Shown: piece after piece, positions 30,033-58,385 of the stretch
How the letters are laid out: each line of letters begins with the position of its first letter
Position numbering within the stretch: position 1 is the first letter of the stretch
IMG/VR virus record: IMGVR_UViG_3300037312_000330
Location: 128,001 to 192,000 of that record
Source: a virus
Taxonomy: Duplodnaviria > Caudoviricetes
DNA length: 64,000 nucleotides
Reading direction: 5' to 3' (one strand)
Program-made: the position numbers and the translations under genes
Notes under the pieces: model-generated
Seen by the model: only the letters and a program-made list of their open reading frames with translations
Database searches by the model: none
Told to the model about the DNA's origin: nothing

Positions 30033-31295
30033 ATGCCATTCAAGCGCAGTTCCAATAACAGAATTCTACCGGCGAACAGTCGCAGTGTTGACGTAGCGAA
30101 GGCGATGTTGGACCGTGTGGTGCCTGTCCAGCAGCGTCGTTATGCGAATGCGTTTGAGGTCAATGGTTACGAAACGCTGCTGTATCAGAAGCTTCGACAT
30201 GGAGTTCCATGCAGTTGTCAGAATCATCGCGGAGCGGCCGCTACGATCCTAGATGAGAGTGGAAAGCTCCGTCCTGGACACATGGATGAACTGTTGACCG
30301 GTGGACTAAGCTTCCGCGTTCAACCATATGGAACTCGCGAGCCGATGCGTGGCGATCTGCGTGCCATCCGTGGTGCAGGACCAGCCGCTCACGAAGAGCA
30401 GATGTTCGACGGCGCCGAAGACGGTGTGCCGTTGGACGACTACGAGATCGAAGACGACTTTGAGAATCCGAACACTACGATCACACATGCTGATGATGGT
30501 GACGTAACAGACAATCAAGACAACGACAATGAGTTGGATGATGAGTCTGAGATCTTCGATGCTGAAGATTATGTCAACGATACCAAGTGCTGCATTTGTT
30601 TCGGGACCGGATGGGTCGGTGGATACAGTCTACTGAACGGTCTTAGAATGGTTCTAAGCACTCAGTGGGGTCCAAACAAACTGAGTATTGATGGAACGAT
30701 AGAAACAAAGCGTTCACCACATGCCTTCATGGCTACTCGCGTCGATTTCACTGCCGTCCTGCCGAAAGGTGTGGTAGGTGTTGATACGTTCCGCATTTGG
30801 AACAACGATCGGCAGACCTTCCCTAGCCAACTGTTGATAGATAACTTGCCATATTCTGTTGGTTTGCTACATGCGTTCTGCGACGGTAGGGAACACACCA
30901 TCAGCGTGCTACATGATCAACTTACATACTGGACGCATGCGGAACTACAGTTCAATCTGAGCACTCAGCGTGCGTTGTTCGAACTGCCGCGGAAAACCGA
31001 CGGGTCGAACATGCAACTTACGGAAGCAGCCGAAGACATGCAGATCAACGTGAGCCCACAAGTGCCGAACATCGAACGCGAGGACATCCTGGTTGAATGC
31101 ACGTTGGGCAAAGGTATGGTTGTTCAATCGGCTACCGACTGGAAGACAGCCAAGCGCGACATCCTAGGATGGGACGTCAACGTGCGTGTCCTGCAACCGA
31201 ACGAGATCGTGAACATGCTGCCTCGGCGCAGGTCCACACATCAGAAGTCCACATATATGGTAAGGGACAACATGGACGGAAGTAGGAGAGTCTGA
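30033..31295 (+). CDS. Hypothetical (probable virion) protein
   Basis: 420 aa; CSC and CCIC motifs; acidic insert. Confidence 0.75.
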   Translation: MPFKRSSNNRILPANSRSVDVAKAMLDRVVPVQQRRYANAFEVNGYETLLYQKLRHGVPCSCQNHRGAAATILDESGKLRPGHMDELLTGGLSFRVQPYGTREPMRGDLRAIRGAGPAAHEEQMFDGAEDGVPLDDYEIEDDFENPNTTITHADDGDVTDNQDNDNELDDESEIFDAEDYVNDTKCCICFGTGWVGGYSLLNGLRMVLSTQWGPNKLSIDGTIETKRSPHAFMATRVDFTAVLPKGVVGVDTFRIWNNDRQTFPSQLLIDNLPYSVGLLHAFCDGREHTISVLHDQLTYWTHAELQFNLSTQRALFELPRKTDGSNMQLTEAAEDMQINVSPQVPNIEREDILVECTLGKGMVVQSATDWKTAKRDILGWDVNVRVLQPNEIVNMLPRRRSTHQKSTYMVRDNMDGSRRV

Positions 31296-31870
31296 TGGTA
31301 GATCCAAAGAAAATCGGCAAATTGATCAGAATCTGGACCACTGATTCAATATATCGTTCTGCTCCAAGAACACGGCTGCTCAAGAAAAAAGTGGCGGTTC
31401 TGTTAAGTAAGGTGCCTGGACAAAAGTTCCCAAATATTGGCTTTCGACTGCTAGAGATAGACGTATCTCGTCTCAAACATTGGACAGATCTTGTCAGAAT
31501 GTTGGATGACAGCTACCCAGAATCTTTCTCGGGGTCGTTGACTGGTCTCAAGAATTACGAGCGGAATGCTAGCGGTGGACACGTGGATATAGGCAAGGCA
31601 GGTTTCCTGGCTTTCCAAATAGAAATGAAATCCAGTGATTGGCTCTTCAGTTTACGTAGTCTCTACGCACAGTTGCCAAGAGAAGAACGTGAGATTGAAG
31701 ACGATGCGGGATTCACGATAAAAGAATATCTGGAGCAAGACGAGGTCGTTGCACGACCAGGAACTCTAAGACGCAGTCTACGAGAGGGTCGCGCTAGTCT
31801 GATAGGGGCAGCCGCCCCACATTCAAAAATGACATGGTACGCAACGCCTAAGAGAATTAGGAAGATGTGA
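31295..31870 (+). CDS. Possible ADP-ribosyltransferase-fold protein
   Basis: GFRLL / ESFSGS / EQDEVVARPG in R-S-E order. Confidence 0.4.
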   Translation: MVDPKKIGKLIRIWTTDSIYRSAPRTRLLKKKVAVLLSKVPGQKFPNIGFRLLEIDVSRLKHWTDLVRMLDDSYPESFSGSLTGLKNYERNASGGHVDIGKAGFLAFQIEMKSSDWLFSLRSLYAQLPREEREIEDDAGFTIKEYLEQDEVVARPGTLRRSLREGRASLIGAAAPHSKMTWYATPKRIRKM

Positions 31871-32595
31871 TGACAATCAACAAGCGAGCACAGACATTCG
31901 ATCTATCGCAGGTGCGGCTTCAGCCGCACGGCAAGACGTCATACGACATCTTTGTAGGTAAGGAGGAAGTTGGCGGTATCGACTTCACTGTCGATTTAAA
32001 GATCACGAAATATGACTTCGTGTCCACGCTCTTCGAGGGCAATCCGTTCATCAAGAAGTTGATGGAACCTGTCCCAGAGAACTACCGCTTCAACTATTAC
32101 TATCTGGATGAGATCATCCTGTGGACACCGTATCGTGGTTCCGGTATTGGCGGAGTCGCACTGCAGAAATGGTTCTCCACGTTGAAGGCGCCTGCAGTCG
32201 TTGCGCTGTCACCAGCCAGAATCGGTAATGTTCCGTATACAGCTTTGCTCCGTTTCTACAAACGGAACGGGATGAGACTGTTCAAATTTCAAGGTGATTA
32301 CATGGCAATCACATTTATCAAACACCCAGACATGGCATCGTTCGTGGGTGACGAAGAAGCGGATACAGCCAACAATGGTGGGACACCGTTCTTCGACGAC
32401 AAATCAGCAGCCGATCGCTACAACCTGAACAAGACCAATGTGACAGCGGATAAAGATTTTCGATCCACAAACCACAGTGTACAGCCGGGATCGGTTCGCT
32501 ATCTGACATTTAAAGATTTGCGTGCCCACGCAGTCTCAGCAAATATCCGACGCATGGGACGCGTTCTTTCCTTCATAAAGGGTCAGAAGGAATGA
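31867..32595 (+). CDS. GNAT-family acetyltransferase with C-terminal extension
   Basis: LDEIILWTPYRGSGIGGVAL (motif A), LLRFYKRNGM (motif B). Confidence 0.7.
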   Translation: MMTINKRAQTFDLSQVRLQPHGKTSYDIFVGKEEVGGIDFTVDLKITKYDFVSTLFEGNPFIKKLMEPVPENYRFNYYYLDEIILWTPYRGSGIGGVALQKWFSTLKAPAVVALSPARIGNVPYTALLRFYKRNGMRLFKFQGDYMAITFIKHPDMASFVGDEEADTANNGGTPFFDDKSAADRYNLNKTNVTADKDFRSTNHSVQPGSVRYLTFKDLRAHAVSANIRRMGRVLSFIKGQKE

Positions 32596-32605
32596 TTAGT
32601 TTGAT
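32596..32605 (+). promoter_or_regulatory. TTAGTTTGAT motif
   Basis: 44 nt before the 32649 gene; same motif as the nrd leaders. Confidence 0.4.
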
Positions 32606-32648
32606 TCCATATATTGGCCCACACAGTTGGGCCTGTTGAGGATAATCT

Positions 32649-33896
32649 ATGGCAATCAAACGATTGTTTGGTGTTACAGAGATCGCGAGCACGCAGTTCC
32701 GGTCTCTTTCTGATGCGGAACGGCACCTGAAGAAAATTCAGGAAGAGATCAAGGATGCCGCCGCGATGTTGCGTAACTATGAAGCTCAATTCGCACGCGT
32801 GGAGCGCCATCCTGTCATGGCAGCCGATCTCACATTCATTATCAATAGCGGTGACGACAACAAAAAGAAGAGTGGAAAGATCGTCAGCGACCGCATCGAC
32901 AAGATTGTAATTCCAAAGCTCGATACTCTTAAGAAGAACTTCGACGTAGTGGATGCCATTTCCGAGAAGATAAAAGAACTCGAGGGAATGGAAGCGAATG
33001 TTGCTGTCAACATGAAGGGAATGCGTGGTCAACCAGAACTGCTGAAAGCCATCAAGAGCACAAAGGCAGCGGCTGACGCGCAAATGAAAGCGGCGCTTGA
33101 ATATCTTGAAACGGTGGGACAGAAGTATGCCCCAACTCCGTTCAAGGAATTCCTTAAGGCCGTAAGCGCCAAACTAAACCAAGATCTCGAGTTCGACAAG
33201 TCGATCATCAGTGTGTACGCGTGGACAGCTCCTACAGAGGAGAACACGTTCACGGTGTATATCCATCTGAAAAACTTCAAAGACGACAACGGCGACATCT
33301 ATCCAGACTTCTACATTGTCTTCACTTGTGTTCTGGCTCCGATCAGCGGAGACAAGCATCAACTGAGCATCGAATACTATGTGACAGTGATGCACGATTT
33401 TGAATCTCCTGGCAAGTTCCACCAAGGACGTCGTGTCTACAACGTCAAAGAGGCGATGGTCGAAATCGGTCACCTGCTGTCCATGGAGAACATCAGTCAC
33501 TCGATCGGTACGCTGCCACACGGTCTGTATCGTCGTGATGAAGAGTTCAAGAACGCGATGAAACAGGGTGCCGGAGCCCGTGTCGACAAGGTGGAGATCG
33601 ATCCATCGTCGTTGACATTCTGGTTCTTCAAGAACGTAAAGCAAGCGGAAGCGCAGAAGCTGATGTCTAGTATGTACGTGGACGTCAAGGCTCTAATGTC
33701 GCATATCCGTGGTGCCAGTCTGAAGATGCGGCAGGTGGAAGAAGACGGCAGACTTGGTGTCAAGTTCAGCCTAATCAATCTGGCTAAGGAAGGTCAGTTG
33801 AATGTCCAAGATCTGGATTGGCTGAAGAGCACATTCAGCCTGCGTGACGATCAAGTACGTGACATCGTTAAGGTCATCAACAAATCGTCGAGGTAA
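32649..33896 (+). CDS. Hypothetical (probable virion) protein
   Basis: 415 aa, coiled-coil N-terminal half. Confidence 0.8.
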   Translation: MAIKRLFGVTEIASTQFRSLSDAERHLKKIQEEIKDAAAMLRNYEAQFARVERHPVMAADLTFIINSGDDNKKKSGKIVSDRIDKIVIPKLDTLKKNFDVVDAISEKIKELEGMEANVAVNMKGMRGQPELLKAIKSTKAAADAQMKAALEYLETVGQKYAPTPFKEFLKAVSAKLNQDLEFDKSIISVYAWTAPTEENTFTVYIHLKNFKDDNGDIYPDFYIVFTCVLAPISGDKHQLSIEYYVTVMHDFESPGKFHQGRRVYNVKEAMVEIGHLLSMENISHSIGTLPHGLYRRDEEFKNAMKQGAGARVDKVEIDPSSLTFWFFKNVKQAEAQKLMSSMYVDVKALMSHIRGASLKMRQVEEDGRLGVKFSLINLAKEGQLNVQDLDWLKSTFSLRDDQVRDIVKVINKSSR

Positions 33897-33899
33897 GAT

Positions 33900-34145
33900 A
33901 TGCCCATCAAACATCGAGTGCAGGCTTTCGCGCCAAGTCCCGGATACGGTGGCGGTGGCGGAGAACCTTTCCACAAAGGACAGAAGGCTCGTGTACCTGA
34001 CATCGGAAAACTGAAGGGCGACACAGTAACAGTGGACTCCGAGTTGCAACCACCGGACAGACAGAACCCAGACGGTTGGTATTGGGTGAAGTTCAAGAAG
34101 GGTGGTCGTGTTAAGATGAAGGCGGGCGATCTGCGTCCGATCTAA
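33900..34145 (+). CDS. Small SH3/KOW-like protein with shared N-terminal tag (MPIKHRVQA)
   Basis: FHKGQKARV...WYWVKF...KMKAGDLRPI. Confidence 0.7.
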   Translation: MPIKHRVQAFAPSPGYGGGGGEPFHKGQKARVPDIGKLKGDTVTVDSELQPPDRQNPDGWYWVKFKKGGRVKMKAGDLRPI

Positions 34146-34146
34146 C

Positions 34147-34920
34147 ATGCCGATCCTACAACGAATACTGGCGGGCAAGTACACTTCAGACCGACTAACT
34201 CGCCAGGAAGCGAAAGACCTGATAGTCTCGCTACGCCCTTTGATACGCAAGCACTGTCAGCAGTTCGAGATCGCTGGCTCCTTCCGTCGTGGAAACACTG
34301 ACATTGGCGATCTTGACTTCGTTGTAGTCAACGCTGATACCGCTGGTCTGCTGCAAGCTCTAGTCCAATACAAGAACGCTGAGAAGGCACCCCGAGCTGG
34401 CAAGGACGTGATGACCGTCATCGTCCCATTTGGCAAGAAGAAGATTCAGGTAGAGTTTGTGAACGTGCTACCACGCGCAGTGGGCAGTGGTCTGTTGCAC
34501 AGTACCGGAAGCGGCGAGTTCAACGTTGGCCTGCGTTCGTTCGCCAAGTCTAAAGGAATGCTGCTCAATCAGCATGGTCTGTTCCGTGCAGACAATGAGC
34601 GCTTCCTTGCTGGTCGTACTGAAGAAGATGTGTTTGACAAACTGGGATTCGCGTTCATCCCGCCGAAGCAACGCAACCTCAGTTTTCTGACTCTCAAGGG
34701 CAAGTACCTTGTCGATCCGTACAAGAACAACTTCTTACTCAAGGAACCGAAAGGCGAAGGTAAGAAGTGGAAGGTCAAGTCGAAGTCTGATCCAACCAAG
34801 TTCTACTTTGTGACCTTGACTCCCAATGGTAAATGGAAGTGCACGTGTCCACAGTTCGTGTACCGCAAGCAAGAGTGTAAGCACATCCAATTCATTAAGG
34901 ACAAGAAGGGGTTGTCATGA
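34147..34920 (+). CDS. polX: Minimal family X DNA polymerase fused to a SWIM zinc finger; N-terminal tag MPILQRILA
   Basis: IAGSFRRG...GDLDFVV, HSTGSGEFNVGLR, LNQHGLF, EEDVFDKLG; C-terminal CTCPQF...CKHI. Confidence 0.85.
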   Translation: MPILQRILAGKYTSDRLTRQEAKDLIVSLRPLIRKHCQQFEIAGSFRRGNTDIGDLDFVVVNADTAGLLQALVQYKNAEKAPRAGKDVMTVIVPFGKKKIQVEFVNVLPRAVGSGLLHSTGSGEFNVGLRSFAKSKGMLLNQHGLFRADNERFLAGRTEEDVFDKLGFAFIPPKQRNLSFLTLKGKYLVDPYKNNFLLKEPKGEGKKWKVKSKSDPTKFYFVTLTPNGKWKCTCPQFVYRKQECKHIQFIKDKKGLS

Positions 34921-35123
34921 CCATCAGAGCAATAGCCCGACTGAAAGAGCTGGCTGCCGAGATTAAGCCCGAGAACAGAGGCAAATTGCACCGCCGGTTG
35001 GGGATCCCGGAAGATCAAGAGATACCAATGTCTCGCTTGCGTTCGGAACTCAAGAAGGCTAAGGACAGCGGTGACACAGAACTCGAGAAGATGGTGAACT
35101 TCGCTATCAATTTCAAGCACTAA
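34917..35123 (+). CDS. Small hypothetical protein
   Basis: GKLHRRLGIPEDQEIP; N-terminal ARLKELAA. Confidence 0.7.
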   Translation: MTIRAIARLKELAAEIKPENRGKLHRRLGIPEDQEIPMSRLRSELKKAKDSGDTELEKMVNFAINFKH

Positions 35124-35125
35124 AC

Positions 35126-35710
35126 ATGCCGCATCCATATCTATACAAGCTGGCCCACAAGCATGGCATCTCAGTGGATGAAGCTGAGAAGCGGTGGAAT
35201 AAGGCGAAGTCCAGAGCCAAAGACGAAGGTAAGGACAAGGACTGGGTTTACATTACTGGAATCTTCAAGCGCAGTATGGGCGAGGGTGCCTCGTTCGTTG
35301 GTGATGAAGAGGCCGACACATACGATCCAGTGCTTCCTCCTGGAATGCAGCCTAACGCTTCCGTAGCCAGATTGCGTGAAGTCGCCGCGATGGCCAATCA
35401 GGCGCAGGCTAAACGATTCCTGCAGGGGATTGGGCTCCAACCTACTTCTGTAGGAATGGTTGAAGAGAACTACATCAGCTACAAGATCAAGGATCCTGGT
35501 GAGAGCAAGACGGTCAACATCATCACGCAGGCGCTCGGCGTGGCGGGTGTAAAGCAAGCGAAAGATTACGGTCCTGTAGTCAATCGCGTTACCAAGACGA
35601 TCCAATGGATCTGGCGTGTGCCGAGCCGTGGGGTCATCAAGTACTTCCCTTCTACACACAAAGTCGCGTTCATGAATCAGGAACTTGACGACAAAGGAGA
35701 GACCGTATGA
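35126..35710 (+). CDS. Hypothetical (probable virion) multi-module protein
   Basis: KHGISVDEAEKRWNKAK module; ASFVGDEEADT; ARLREVAA. Confidence 0.75.
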   Translation: MPHPYLYKLAHKHGISVDEAEKRWNKAKSRAKDEGKDKDWVYITGIFKRSMGEGASFVGDEEADTYDPVLPPGMQPNASVARLREVAAMANQAQAKRFLQGIGLQPTSVGMVEENYISYKIKDPGESKTVNIITQALGVAGVKQAKDYGPVVNRVTKTIQWIWRVPSRGVIKYFPSTHKVAFMNQELDDKGETV

Positions 35711-36669
35711 AGACGAAAGCTGCGAAGCGTCTGCTGACAGCCGGTCGCTACGTTGGCACCCAGGAGTGGTTCCTTGGTATGCCAGAAGAGAAACAACGCG
35801 ATTATCTAGCGAAGAAACCTTGCTCCACGTTCAAGCCTGTCCACAAGGAAGTCCGTGAAACGAATGCGGACAGCAGCAAGAAGCAACAGACCAAGCTCCG
35901 CAAGCGTGCCGAGAAGCACCTGGACAACAAGACCGGACTGAGCACAGCAGCCGCGCCTAAGCTGGCCAAACCAGTGAAACTTGGCAAGACTGTAGACGGC
36001 AAGAACTACGTCTGGCGCGAAGAATGCATAATCAACCGACAAAAGGCAGAAGTCTACGTAGTCCGGAATAAGGCGGGTAAGGAGTTAGTTGCACTCAAGA
36101 ACTCTCGCGCAGCCTTCGAGTATCGACCTCTGGAGTCCAGCACCAGCACAGCGACAGCCCGTCTGCGTGAGATCGCCACGGGTCGTGGACCGGCGATTGG
36201 TGATCTCTGCAAGTTGAAGAAGCCGATTGGCGGATATTCGTACTTCCATTGCACTGGATTCGCCATCAATAAGAACAAGCAAGGTCTTGGTCCCATGGGT
36301 CTTGGAGACGGTCGCTTTCCGTTTGCTGGTGCCCAGATAGATGGGATCATTGGTAATCTGAAACCAACCCCATTGGCGACCAACGACTATGGACCCAAGA
36401 AGACTATCAAGCTAGAAGACATCGATACAGTGTTGGACGCACGCTCACGGCAACTCGAGATACAAGAATACCGTGACAAGCAACCGCTCGCCGTTGGATC
36501 AGTAGTCCGATTCAACGGACAGCTCTATACAGTGAAGAGCGGACCGCATTACGACACACCGAGACAGCGCAAGACAGACACGGCGTCCTGGTATGTGTGC
36601 GTAGACAAGAGTGGTGTCGAACACCAGATCAGCCGTGCTGCACTCGAATTCATGTACGGACCACGCTAA
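35707..36669 (+). CDS. Hypothetical multi-module protein
   Basis: 320 aa; internal ARLREIAT; C-terminal SH3-like segment. Confidence 0.75.
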   Translation: MKTKAAKRLLTAGRYVGTQEWFLGMPEEKQRDYLAKKPCSTFKPVHKEVRETNADSSKKQQTKLRKRAEKHLDNKTGLSTAAAPKLAKPVKLGKTVDGKNYVWREECIINRQKAEVYVVRNKAGKELVALKNSRAAFEYRPLESSTSTATARLREIATGRGPAIGDLCKLKKPIGGYSYFHCTGFAINKNKQGLGPMGLGDGRFPFAGAQIDGIIGNLKPTPLATNDYGPKKTIKLEDIDTVLDARSRQLEIQEYRDKQPLAVGSVVRFNGQLYTVKSGPHYDTPRQRKTDTASWYVCVDKSGVEHQISRAALEFMYGPR

Positions 36670-36672
36670 GAT

Positions 36673-38157
36673 ATGGACAACTCCACAACTTTGTGCGTAA
36701 AGTTCCCCGCTGACAGTAGCAACGTCACAGTCAGCTTTGCCGACGTACTTGTGGGTGGGGAGCAGATCGTAAGCGGAGTGCTTGGCACCAGCACTCCAAC
36801 CGGGTTGACAGTCAGCAGTCTGAGTTTCACGGGCACGACCATCAGCCTGAATGTCGCTGCTGGAACAGACAAGCAAAGTTACGGGGTCCAAGTCACTGCG
36901 AATACGGACGCCGGTCACGTCTACACGAAGGTGCTTGCAGTCGTGATCAACAGTGATCTGGCTGCCGACTATCAGAACACGAACGTAGACGCGTTCCAAG
37001 CTCTGGTCGGAAAACTGGAAGCCGGAACTGCTGCCCTAGGTAAAGCCGCGTTCATGTTCCCTGGAACAGTGGATACCACATCCGGTATCGTAACGTGGGA
37101 TCTGCTGGATCAGAATGGAGTAGTGCTTGCCAACGGACAGGCGTTCGACTATCAGACGATCGCAGTAGCAAGTGGCAAGCGTGCCGAGGCACAAGCTGTT
37201 ATCACGGCTCCGTCGAACACAACGCCTACACTGGACGGACAGTCGTATCAGCTCCGTTGGACACTGACTCTCAACGGACAGCAATACTTCTCGTTCGAGA
37301 GTCTGCAAATCACCGGTCCGGCCACTGTGCCGGAAGGTGTCGAAGATGTCATCGAGATGGATGACGTTACGGCGTTCACCATCTACATGGTATCTGATCA
37401 GCCGTGGGACACCGTGACCGTCGATGTTTACGATGAGAACACCAAGATCGTTGTGGATGCACCGACTGCAGCTCCAACACAAACTGCTGACGGATGGCAG
37501 TATATGTGTCAGTTCCAGCCGGATCCAAACAACCTTATGCTGGCGCGTTTGGAAAGCTACACTGTCGTTTGGAAGACTAGCAATGTCGCGCGTCCTGGCT
37601 ATGTGGAACGACAGACAGGACGTTTGTTTGTAGTCAATGCTTCTATCATGGCTGCTGTCACAGACATGCGGACCGTGATCGCCAAGGCAGAGACAACGAT
37701 TCTGGGCACCAAAGACATCCTGTTCACGGATACGCTGCTACTTGCGTATCTGCGTCGTGGTAAAGACGCCTTCAACATCGCTTACGGTATGTTCACGGCG
37801 TTCGACATGACTAACGCACAAGGGCCGGTACGCGAATACTGGATGCGCTATTCTGAGATAACTGCACTCCGGGCTCAATTCTTGGCCGAAGGCGAGAAAG
37901 TGTTCAACTTCTCAGGACAGGCTATCCAGTTGGATTCGGATCGCACCACCTACTATCAGCAGCTCGCTGACAACATCGAGCAGCGGATCTCAGAGGAATG
38001 CAAGATGATCAAGCAAAACCTGATCAAGAAGGGTATCCTGGGTGGTGACGGAAACCTGAAGGATCTGACGGCGATGCGACATGGTTCCAACGGTGCTGTT
38101 GCCATCACGATCACGCCGGCGTCTACTCTGGGATATCGCTTTGCGCGGAGATTCTAA
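36673..38157 (+). CDS. Probable virion structural protein
   Basis: 494 aa, Thr/Val-rich beta-type N-terminal domains, helical C-terminus. Confidence 0.65.
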   Translation: MDNSTTLCVKFPADSSNVTVSFADVLVGGEQIVSGVLGTSTPTGLTVSSLSFTGTTISLNVAAGTDKQSYGVQVTANTDAGHVYTKVLAVVINSDLAADYQNTNVDAFQALVGKLEAGTAALGKAAFMFPGTVDTTSGIVTWDLLDQNGVVLANGQAFDYQTIAVASGKRAEAQAVITAPSNTTPTLDGQSYQLRWTLTLNGQQYFSFESLQITGPATVPEGVEDVIEMDDVTAFTIYMVSDQPWDTVTVDVYDENTKIVVDAPTAAPTQTADGWQYMCQFQPDPNNLMLARLESYTVVWKTSNVARPGYVERQTGRLFVVNASIMAAVTDMRTVIAKAETTILGTKDILFTDTLLLAYLRRGKDAFNIAYGMFTAFDMTNAQGPVREYWMRYSEITALRAQFLAEGEKVFNFSGQAIQLDSDRTTYYQQLADNIEQRISEECKMIKQNLIKKGILGGDGNLKDLTAMRHGSNGAVAITITPASTLGYRFARRF

Positions 38158-57881: not shown

Positions 57882-58385
57882 ATGGCGAAAATGGACAAAG
57901 CAGTTGCGAAGCGCTTCGAAGAACTCGAAGAGAAGCTGGAAGACCTGAAGAAGGCTTACCAGAAGCTCGCGAAGGGTGGCGCGGCTGCCAAGGGTGGCAA
58001 GGGCAAAGCCAAGGACGAAGATGATGACTCGGACGATGATGACGAGGACTTCGATCTCGACGATGAAGACGAGGTGAAGCCGGCCAAGGGCAAGAAGGGT
58101 GGCAAGGCTGCTGCCAAGAAGACTGCCAAGAAGGGTGGAAAGAAGTCCAAGGACGAGGACGAAGACGAAGATGACGACGCCGATGAAGACGGCGACGACG
58201 ATTCGGACGACGAAGACGACGAGGACGAGAAGCCTTCCAAGAAGGGCGCCAAGGGCAAGAAGGGCGCTGCCAAGAAAGCCGGTAAGAAGGGTGGCAAGAA
58301 GTCCAAGGATGAAGACGAGGACGACGATGACGAGGACGACGAAGACGGCGACGATGATGACGACTTCGAAGATGACGACGAATGA
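57882..58385 (+). CDS. Charge-block low-complexity protein (coiled coil + alternating K-rich and D/E-rich blocks)
   Basis: RBS GGAG; internal duplication of AKGKKG.AAKK..KKGGKKSKDEDED. Confidence 0.8.
   Translation: MAKMDKAVAKRFEELEEKLEDLKKAYQKLAKGGAAAKGGKGKAKDEDDDSDDDDEDFDLDDEDEVKPAKGKKGGKAAAKKTAKKGGKKSKDEDEDEDDDADEDGDDDSDDEDDEDEKPSKKGAKGKKGAAKKAGKKGGKKSKDEDEDDDDEDDEDGDDDDDFEDDDE

Follow-up and report, generated by a model that had tools for sequence, protein, structure and literature searches.

The window analysed here is a 64,000-nt stretch of a single 248,884-bp viral contig (bases 128001-192000 of IMG/VR record IMGVR_UViG_3300037312_000330; 51% G+C) from an uncultured soil phage, and within it the 11-residue peptide ASFVGDEEADT is encoded twice, in two otherwise unrelated proteins. 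Copy 1 (32335-32367) forms residues 156-166 of a protein of 241 residues, counted from the ATG of an open reading frame (ORF) at 31867/31870-32595, and is directly preceded by a methionine (32332-32334). Copy 2 (35288-35320) forms residues 55-65 of a protein of 194 residues (ORF 35126-35710). In the first protein the peptide is the first stretch after a GNAT-fold domain (31870-32331) and is followed by a C-terminal part (32368-32595); in the second it comes directly after a three-helix N-terminal module (35126-35287) and is followed by the rest of a linker (35321-35389) and a conserved C-terminal core domain (35390-35710). All of these features are encoded on the plus strand. The proteins encoded in the window show most similarity to proteins of Burkholderia phages BcepSauron and BcepSaruman, Ralstonia phage phiRSL1 and Achromobacter phage Motura. 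The phage belongs to the phiRSL1/BcepSauron/Motura group, which is far from the phiKZ-like nucleus-forming phages (Matilda preprint). No match was obtained when positions 31000-37000 were compared by megablast with cultured phages. Contigs from two rhizosphere runs reproduced positions 31800-35800 with zero differences, which excludes a one-off assembly slip; both runs are possible source samples, their agreement is not independent confirmation, and contigs are blind to rare variants.

The two copies of the peptide are identical at 27 of 33 bases, and each of the six differences is synonymous and located at a third codon position. The coordinates of both copies and the six codon differences were given correctly in the initial annotation of this DNA. 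Six of 7.7 synonymous sites differ (pS 0.78, saturated), as against none of 25.3 non-synonymous sites, and in simulation the probability of an unaltered peptide after six random substitutions was about 3e-5. The DNA flanking the two copies is unrelated, and high nucleotide identity reaching into the flanks, as expected of a recent DNA repeat or duplication, was not observed. By BLASTP, the only similarity between the two host proteins was the motif region, as had been claimed. Taken together, the pattern of differences between the copies indicates purifying selection on the peptide while the DNA beneath it drifted, in agreement with the earlier proposal of a conserved peptide rather than a recent DNA copy; this evidence comes solely from setting the two copies against one another.

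The initial annotation had also suggested that the full proteome be searched for more copies. When the whole genome was scanned in six frames with up to 4 substitutions allowed, no copy was found beyond the two. Shared peptides were then listed genome-wide by an all-against-all comparison (seven residues or longer, with a separate run for 8-mers). Shared peptides of at least eight residues came from three large paralogues at 20-34 kb, from exact DNA repeats, from a handful of 8-mers that match by chance in overlapping or opposite frames, and from the motif; there were about 25 chance matches of seven residues. Since chance matches end at about seven to eight residues, the 11-mer lies far beyond chance, and the observation is confirmed as real, statistically solid and neatly placed. 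One exact DNA repeat, of 51 bp, occurs at window positions 58116-58166 and at genome positions 124025-124075 (outside the window), in Lys/Asp/Glu-rich low-complexity ORFs (KKTAKKGGKKSKDEDED).

AlphaFold modelled residues 9-154 of the first protein with a predicted local distance difference test score (pLDDT) of about 88, and residues 155-241 with scores below 50. A Foldseek search of PDB with this model returned 40 matches at E <=1e-3 among GNAT-fold enzymes (best 2.7e-5), the best structural matches of the domain (residues 1-154, beginning MTINKRAQTF) being the N-terminal acetyltransferases Naa60, Naa50 and NatC. The sequence YRGSGIGG fits the acetyl-CoA loop R/Q-x-x-G-x-G/A. No Pfam match was found for the protein, which on the basis of its fold and acetyl-CoA loop is predicted to be a GNAT acetyltransferase, the class to which it had first been assigned.

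Homologues of the acetyltransferase end where the confident model ends. In all four of them (P0004, P0005, P0017 and L011:45-389) a stop codon follows right after ...TF[IV]K[AS](K/N), just before the motif position. In the relative L005, a separate gene in a different frame begins 1 base after the acetyltransferase stop, and the product of this small gene (L005:1240-1527) is 49% identical to the C-terminal part of the first protein (ANNGGTPFF ... IRRMGRVLSFIKGQKE), which is fused in frame in the window. The L005 small gene reads MTSKRKRKRAN-ANNGGTPFF...IRRLGRV..KGQQE and the window M-ASFVGDEEADT-ANNGGTPFF...IRRMGRV..KGQKE, so that the L005 start MTSKRKRKRAN aligns with MASFVGDEEADT. Because the homologues stop before the motif and the L005 small gene is separate, two genes appear to have merged into one frame here, and in this alignment copy 1 coincides exactly with the initial stretch, some ten residues long, of the downstream fusion partner. 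A homologue search with the C-terminal part found nothing, and the small gene is not annotated as a gene in L005.

The model of the second protein consists of three helices (residues 4-50), a stretch with pLDDT below 50 (residues 54-87) and a confident alpha/beta domain. As AlphaFold confidence falls at the motif in each protein, its placement at a domain boundary in both, proposed at the outset, is borne out. Scores below 50 at the two motif sites were taken as likely disorder, with the underlying alignments being shallow. The core domain (beginning ANQAQAKRFLQ) is the conserved part of the family and the sole content of four homologues (P0010-P0013), three of which open with the tag-like sequence [AT]RLxEV immediately before the domain. 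The remaining linker of the second protein (YDPVLPPGMQPNASV) leads into the tag-like sequence ARLREVAA (35366-35389), at which the short homologues begin in alignment A1. Other homologues carry N-terminal helices, each with a different linker. In this otherwise hypervariable linker, the second half of the motif and the residues that follow it are common only to P0008 (EG-EEADAYDPVLP, giving the shared pattern EEAD[TA]YDPVLP) and P0007 (QKADAYDPVLP, the match there being KADAYDPVLP). Foldseek found no match to the second-protein model in PDB at E <=1e-3, and matches in the ESM Atlas were to unnamed viral clusters only.

At residues 1-54 the second protein carries a member of a large, undescribed family of N-terminal modules. 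Comparison of residues 1-70 with 1.84 billion representative proteins gave 405 clusters at E <=1e-3, and the family is thus put at at least 405 protein clusters, a few multi-stretch matches being LysM-like repeats that are probably unrelated. The match is nearly always the first 54 or so residues of proteins ranging from 54 to 931 residues, many of them free-standing modules. The consensus for 35126-35287 is MPxPYVKKLAKKxGxSxxxAExxWxKAKxxAxxxGxxxDYAYITGIFKKMxGE (alignment A4; P0020-P0168), for which neither Pfam nor PHROGs holds a family model. The module occurs once in this genome. Few partners are of known family: NUDIX proteins, including one in phage Motura, and one S77-type head-maturation protease, which the module heads at L021:7839-9803, directly upstream of a gp23-like major capsid gene. 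After the third helix, 25 of 132 module tails carry [ST]-F-x-[DE]-F-[LM]...E, compared with 1.5 in shuffles. The pattern SF.{1,3}DEE was found at the same offset in 2 of 132 other module tails (ASFVLADEEVT in P0024 and SFTDEEGE in P0104; expected 0.02), in a test that was not blind, both tails having been known before the pattern was fixed. Several free-standing module proteins (P0041, P0079, P0093, P0146) end in an ARLxA-like sequence, while short homologues of the second protein start at or just before [AT]RLxEV (P0011 with MARLFEV). From these starts and ends, an [AT]RLxEV-like tag appears to mark natural protein ends on both sides.

Copy 2 looks native to the module tail, given EEAD[TA]YDPVLP in its closest homologues and SF..DEE tails in other module proteins, and the acetyltransferase copy is probably secondary, transplanted at the gene fusion. 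The motif would originally have been part of the tail after the widespread ~54-residue module at the start of the 35126-35710 protein. A copy would later have been placed at the joint of the acetyltransferase gene and the small gene that follows, replacing about ten residues at the start of the small protein, and with the acetyltransferase stop codon lost a single fused frame would have resulted. The stretch upstream of the motif also aligns loosely between the two proteins (ITFIK versus ITGIFK; DYMAITFIKHPDM versus DWVYITGIFKRSMGEG, 16 of 27 positions including the 11 motif residues), which would fit a deletion that removed a module. The small-protein homologue carrying the module that such a deletion predicts was not found. 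An endonuclease-cassette origin was also considered and was ruled out by gene order: a conserved 415-residue gene and no endonuclease gene lies between the copies, which are 3 kb apart in different genes and do not represent two versions of a single gene end.

As to function, our tentative preference is for a selected short linear peptide in flexible linkers that is read by one shared factor, most likely as a processing site. A processing protease would cut inside the acidic half, V-G-D-E|E, in both proteins, and cutting would free modules that relatives make as separate proteins. A cleavage site would explain three facts, namely that the peptide is selected, that it lies in low-confidence linkers, and that it joins parts which are separate in relatives. 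In both proteins the motif starts where the confident model ends, and at both joints relatives are split or differently linked; elsewhere the module is free-standing or fused to other proteins, and the core stands alone in P0010-P0013. The T4 protease consensus is L/I-x-E, and that of phiKZ-type proteases A/S/G-x-E. VGDE|E fits a V-[A/S/G]-x-E preference and the motif has no L/I-x-E; the matching pattern is too short to carry weight. Also in favour of processing is that the module heads the L021 head-maturation protease beside a capsid gene.

Several findings weigh against a processing site. ASFVGDEEADT is absent from P0004, P0005, P0007-P0013 and L011 and is thus not conserved in orthologues, and the module-plus-core fusions P0007, P0009 and L011 have other linkers, so that the second-protein family can do without the motif. 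Viral contigs gave no match to a degenerate DNA pattern covering the whole motif, and scans of such contigs for related loci recovered a single 72-kb relative, without the motif. The pattern SFVGDEEAD gave 5 matches in metagenome contigs, all of which were rejected as chance: one (L013) is antisense to a DNA ligase gene, and four lie in short, seemingly non-coding stop-to-stop frames with nothing else shared. The initial annotation had held that its proposal would fail if the motif were not conserved in homologues and had no cleavage or binding partner; the conservation half of this came out against it, the motif being absent from every recovered homologue and from the viral and metagenome contig scans. 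In addition, [ASG]-x-E is a weak three-residue pattern easily matched by an acidic peptide, the probable direction of transfer is based on short matches, and most module-bearing genes lie among nucleotide-metabolism genes rather than head genes. No S77, S78 or XkdF-type protease was detected in the genome with PF03420, PF04586, PF14550 and the protease part of P0049, a search that could miss a divergent one. No prohead protease was found by the three Pfam models, nor was a binding partner found; the earlier suggestion of a protease site or docking motif is still a matter of inference.

The same evidence of selection and the same low-confidence linkers would serve equally for an uncut docking motif that binds one shared partner (such as a host protein or one involved in assembly) and would thereby gather both proteins in a common location or complex. 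Conservation of 11 of 11 residues exceeds what a protease needs at P4-P1' and fits an extended binding interface, so that docking accounts for the full length of the motif at least as well as cleavage does, and it is normal for short linear motifs to be lineage-specific and missing from homologues. Docking gives no reason, however, for both copies to lie exactly where relatives have separate genes, and we regard it as possible but somewhat doubtful. Cleavage and docking are not separable from sequence and models. It is rather unlikely that the acetyltransferase copy is a relic with no role of its own, left from a lost or partly copied module cassette (for example by deletion between the ITFIK and ITGIFK ends), with selection acting in the second protein only or the identity owed to luck. 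The loose upstream alignment, the hypervariability of the linker elsewhere in the second-protein family and the presence of the motif in one genome only would all suit such a relic; the low probability of six all-synonymous changes without constraint argues against it, as do the saturated synonymous sites, which imply ample time for replacements in a low-confidence linker, and the failure to find a small-protein homologue with the module.

Translation from Met 32332 and Met 35276, which would make the motif the N-terminus of two downstream proteins, would agree with the methionine directly before copy 1, which aligns with the start codon of the separate L005 gene, and with a methionine four residues before copy 2. 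Neither methionine has a Shine-Dalgarno-like sequence or a nearby stop for coupling, whereas 7 of 9 real starts checked have at least one of the two, and the role of the peptide would remain unaccounted for; internal starts are accordingly an improbable explanation. By far the least probable is a DNA, RNA or antisense-coded element, with the peptide identity arising as its by-product. The antisense frame with shared wobble positions is itself conserved (VSASSSPTN, 10 of 12), but every difference between the copies falls on a sense-strand wobble position and the flanks lack similarity. That frame has open stretches of just 39 and 49 codons, with nothing in common past the motif, the longer antisense ORFs being in non-conserved frames, and from its short length its conservation is taken to be the by-product.

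The candidate processing site can be set beside known systems. The capsid targeting sequence of T4 is described as a peptide of ~10 residues on unrelated internal proteins (Mullaney and Black 1996, cited in PMC10052503). The two are alike in being short peptides on otherwise unrelated phage proteins of a variable locus, with conservation at the protein level; the T4 sequence ends in an acidic protease site, to which the acidic half of ASFVGDEEADT would correspond if it were cut. The T4 sequence differs in standing at the extreme N-terminus of several proteins and in being conserved across T4-like phages. ASFVGDEEADT is internal, has two copies and is missing in relatives, and the search for a protease of the T4 type gave no match. 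It does not have the N-terminal position of T4-type sequences or propeptides (residues 156-166 of 241 and 55-65 of 194), although the copy in the second protein does follow an N-terminal module. The SPN3US head protease gp245 cleaves behind A-X-E and prefers V at P4, and almost every cut known for it frees an N-terminal propeptide (PMC10052503). VGDE|E would match the phiKZ/SPN3US propeptide sites in its fit to V-[A/S/G]-x-E, and the predicted cut would remove an N-terminal module, as nearly all known gp245 cuts do; those sites are a three- to four-residue pattern as against 11 conserved residues here, and the phage groups are far apart. Owing to its internal position and the failure of the genome searches to find a matching protease gene, the motif was classed with neither the T4 targeting sequences nor the phiKZ-type propeptide sites.

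A short peptide in a low-confidence tail or linker common to unrelated proteins also recalls the cargo-loading peptides of encapsulins. These are short sequences on unrelated cargo enzymes that dock them to the shell protein, and are usually terminal and conserved within a family, with a known binding pocket. In contrast, ASFVGDEEADT is internal and is seen in one genome. The peptide does have the structure of a short linear motif, being a short, likely disordered stretch in unrelated proteins; the conservation among orthologues that also characterizes such motifs was not found.

The first protein lies in a variable slot (31295-32648) between genes for 420 residues (30033-31295) and 415 residues (32649-33896), which are adjacent in BcepSauron. 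PDB sequence searches with these two neighbouring proteins and with a 494-residue neighbour gave nothing useful. An N-terminal tag, M-[PSA]-I-x-[HNK]-R-[IV]-x-A-A, is present on at least seven otherwise unrelated ORFs (starts 29694, 31870, 33900, 34147, 38157, 40669 and 41207), including the acetyltransferase, PolX-SWIM and NUDIX genes, and is kept as a peptide, its third codon positions varying; it also occurs in relatives (L001, L006). The GNAT domain (31870-32331) thus sits in a cluster of proteins sharing this tag, and any link to its likeness to N-terminal acetyltransferases is pure speculation. In uncultured relatives the variable slot holds acetyltransferase paralogues (L001), a kinase-like ORF (L011:748-1329) or other tagged ORFs (L006). 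The small ORF behind the acetyltransferase in the 72-kb relative (L011:364-627) has IRRLGRILAV before ANNRG..., the order being swapped relative to ANNGG...IRR[ML]GRV in window 32368-32595 and L005.

A wider scheme, in which phiRSL1-like jumbo phages would possess a modular addressing-and-processing system, with a removable module, the enzyme tag M-P-I-x-H-R-I-x-A-A and shared linker sites serving capsid loading and proteolytic release, is unlikely, if conceivable. Taken by itself, a motif present twice in a single uncultured genome is a minor result; its origin is probable, and its function we infer. Better leads are the undescribed N-terminal module and the surrounding N-terminal tags: the module, whose large family lacks a model in Pfam and PHROGs and is joined to hundreds of different phage proteins, is the more useful by-product. 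Should the peptide be a processing or docking site, it would mark how this phage group handles fused accessory enzymes, and would offer an 11-residue handle for finding the protease or receptor.

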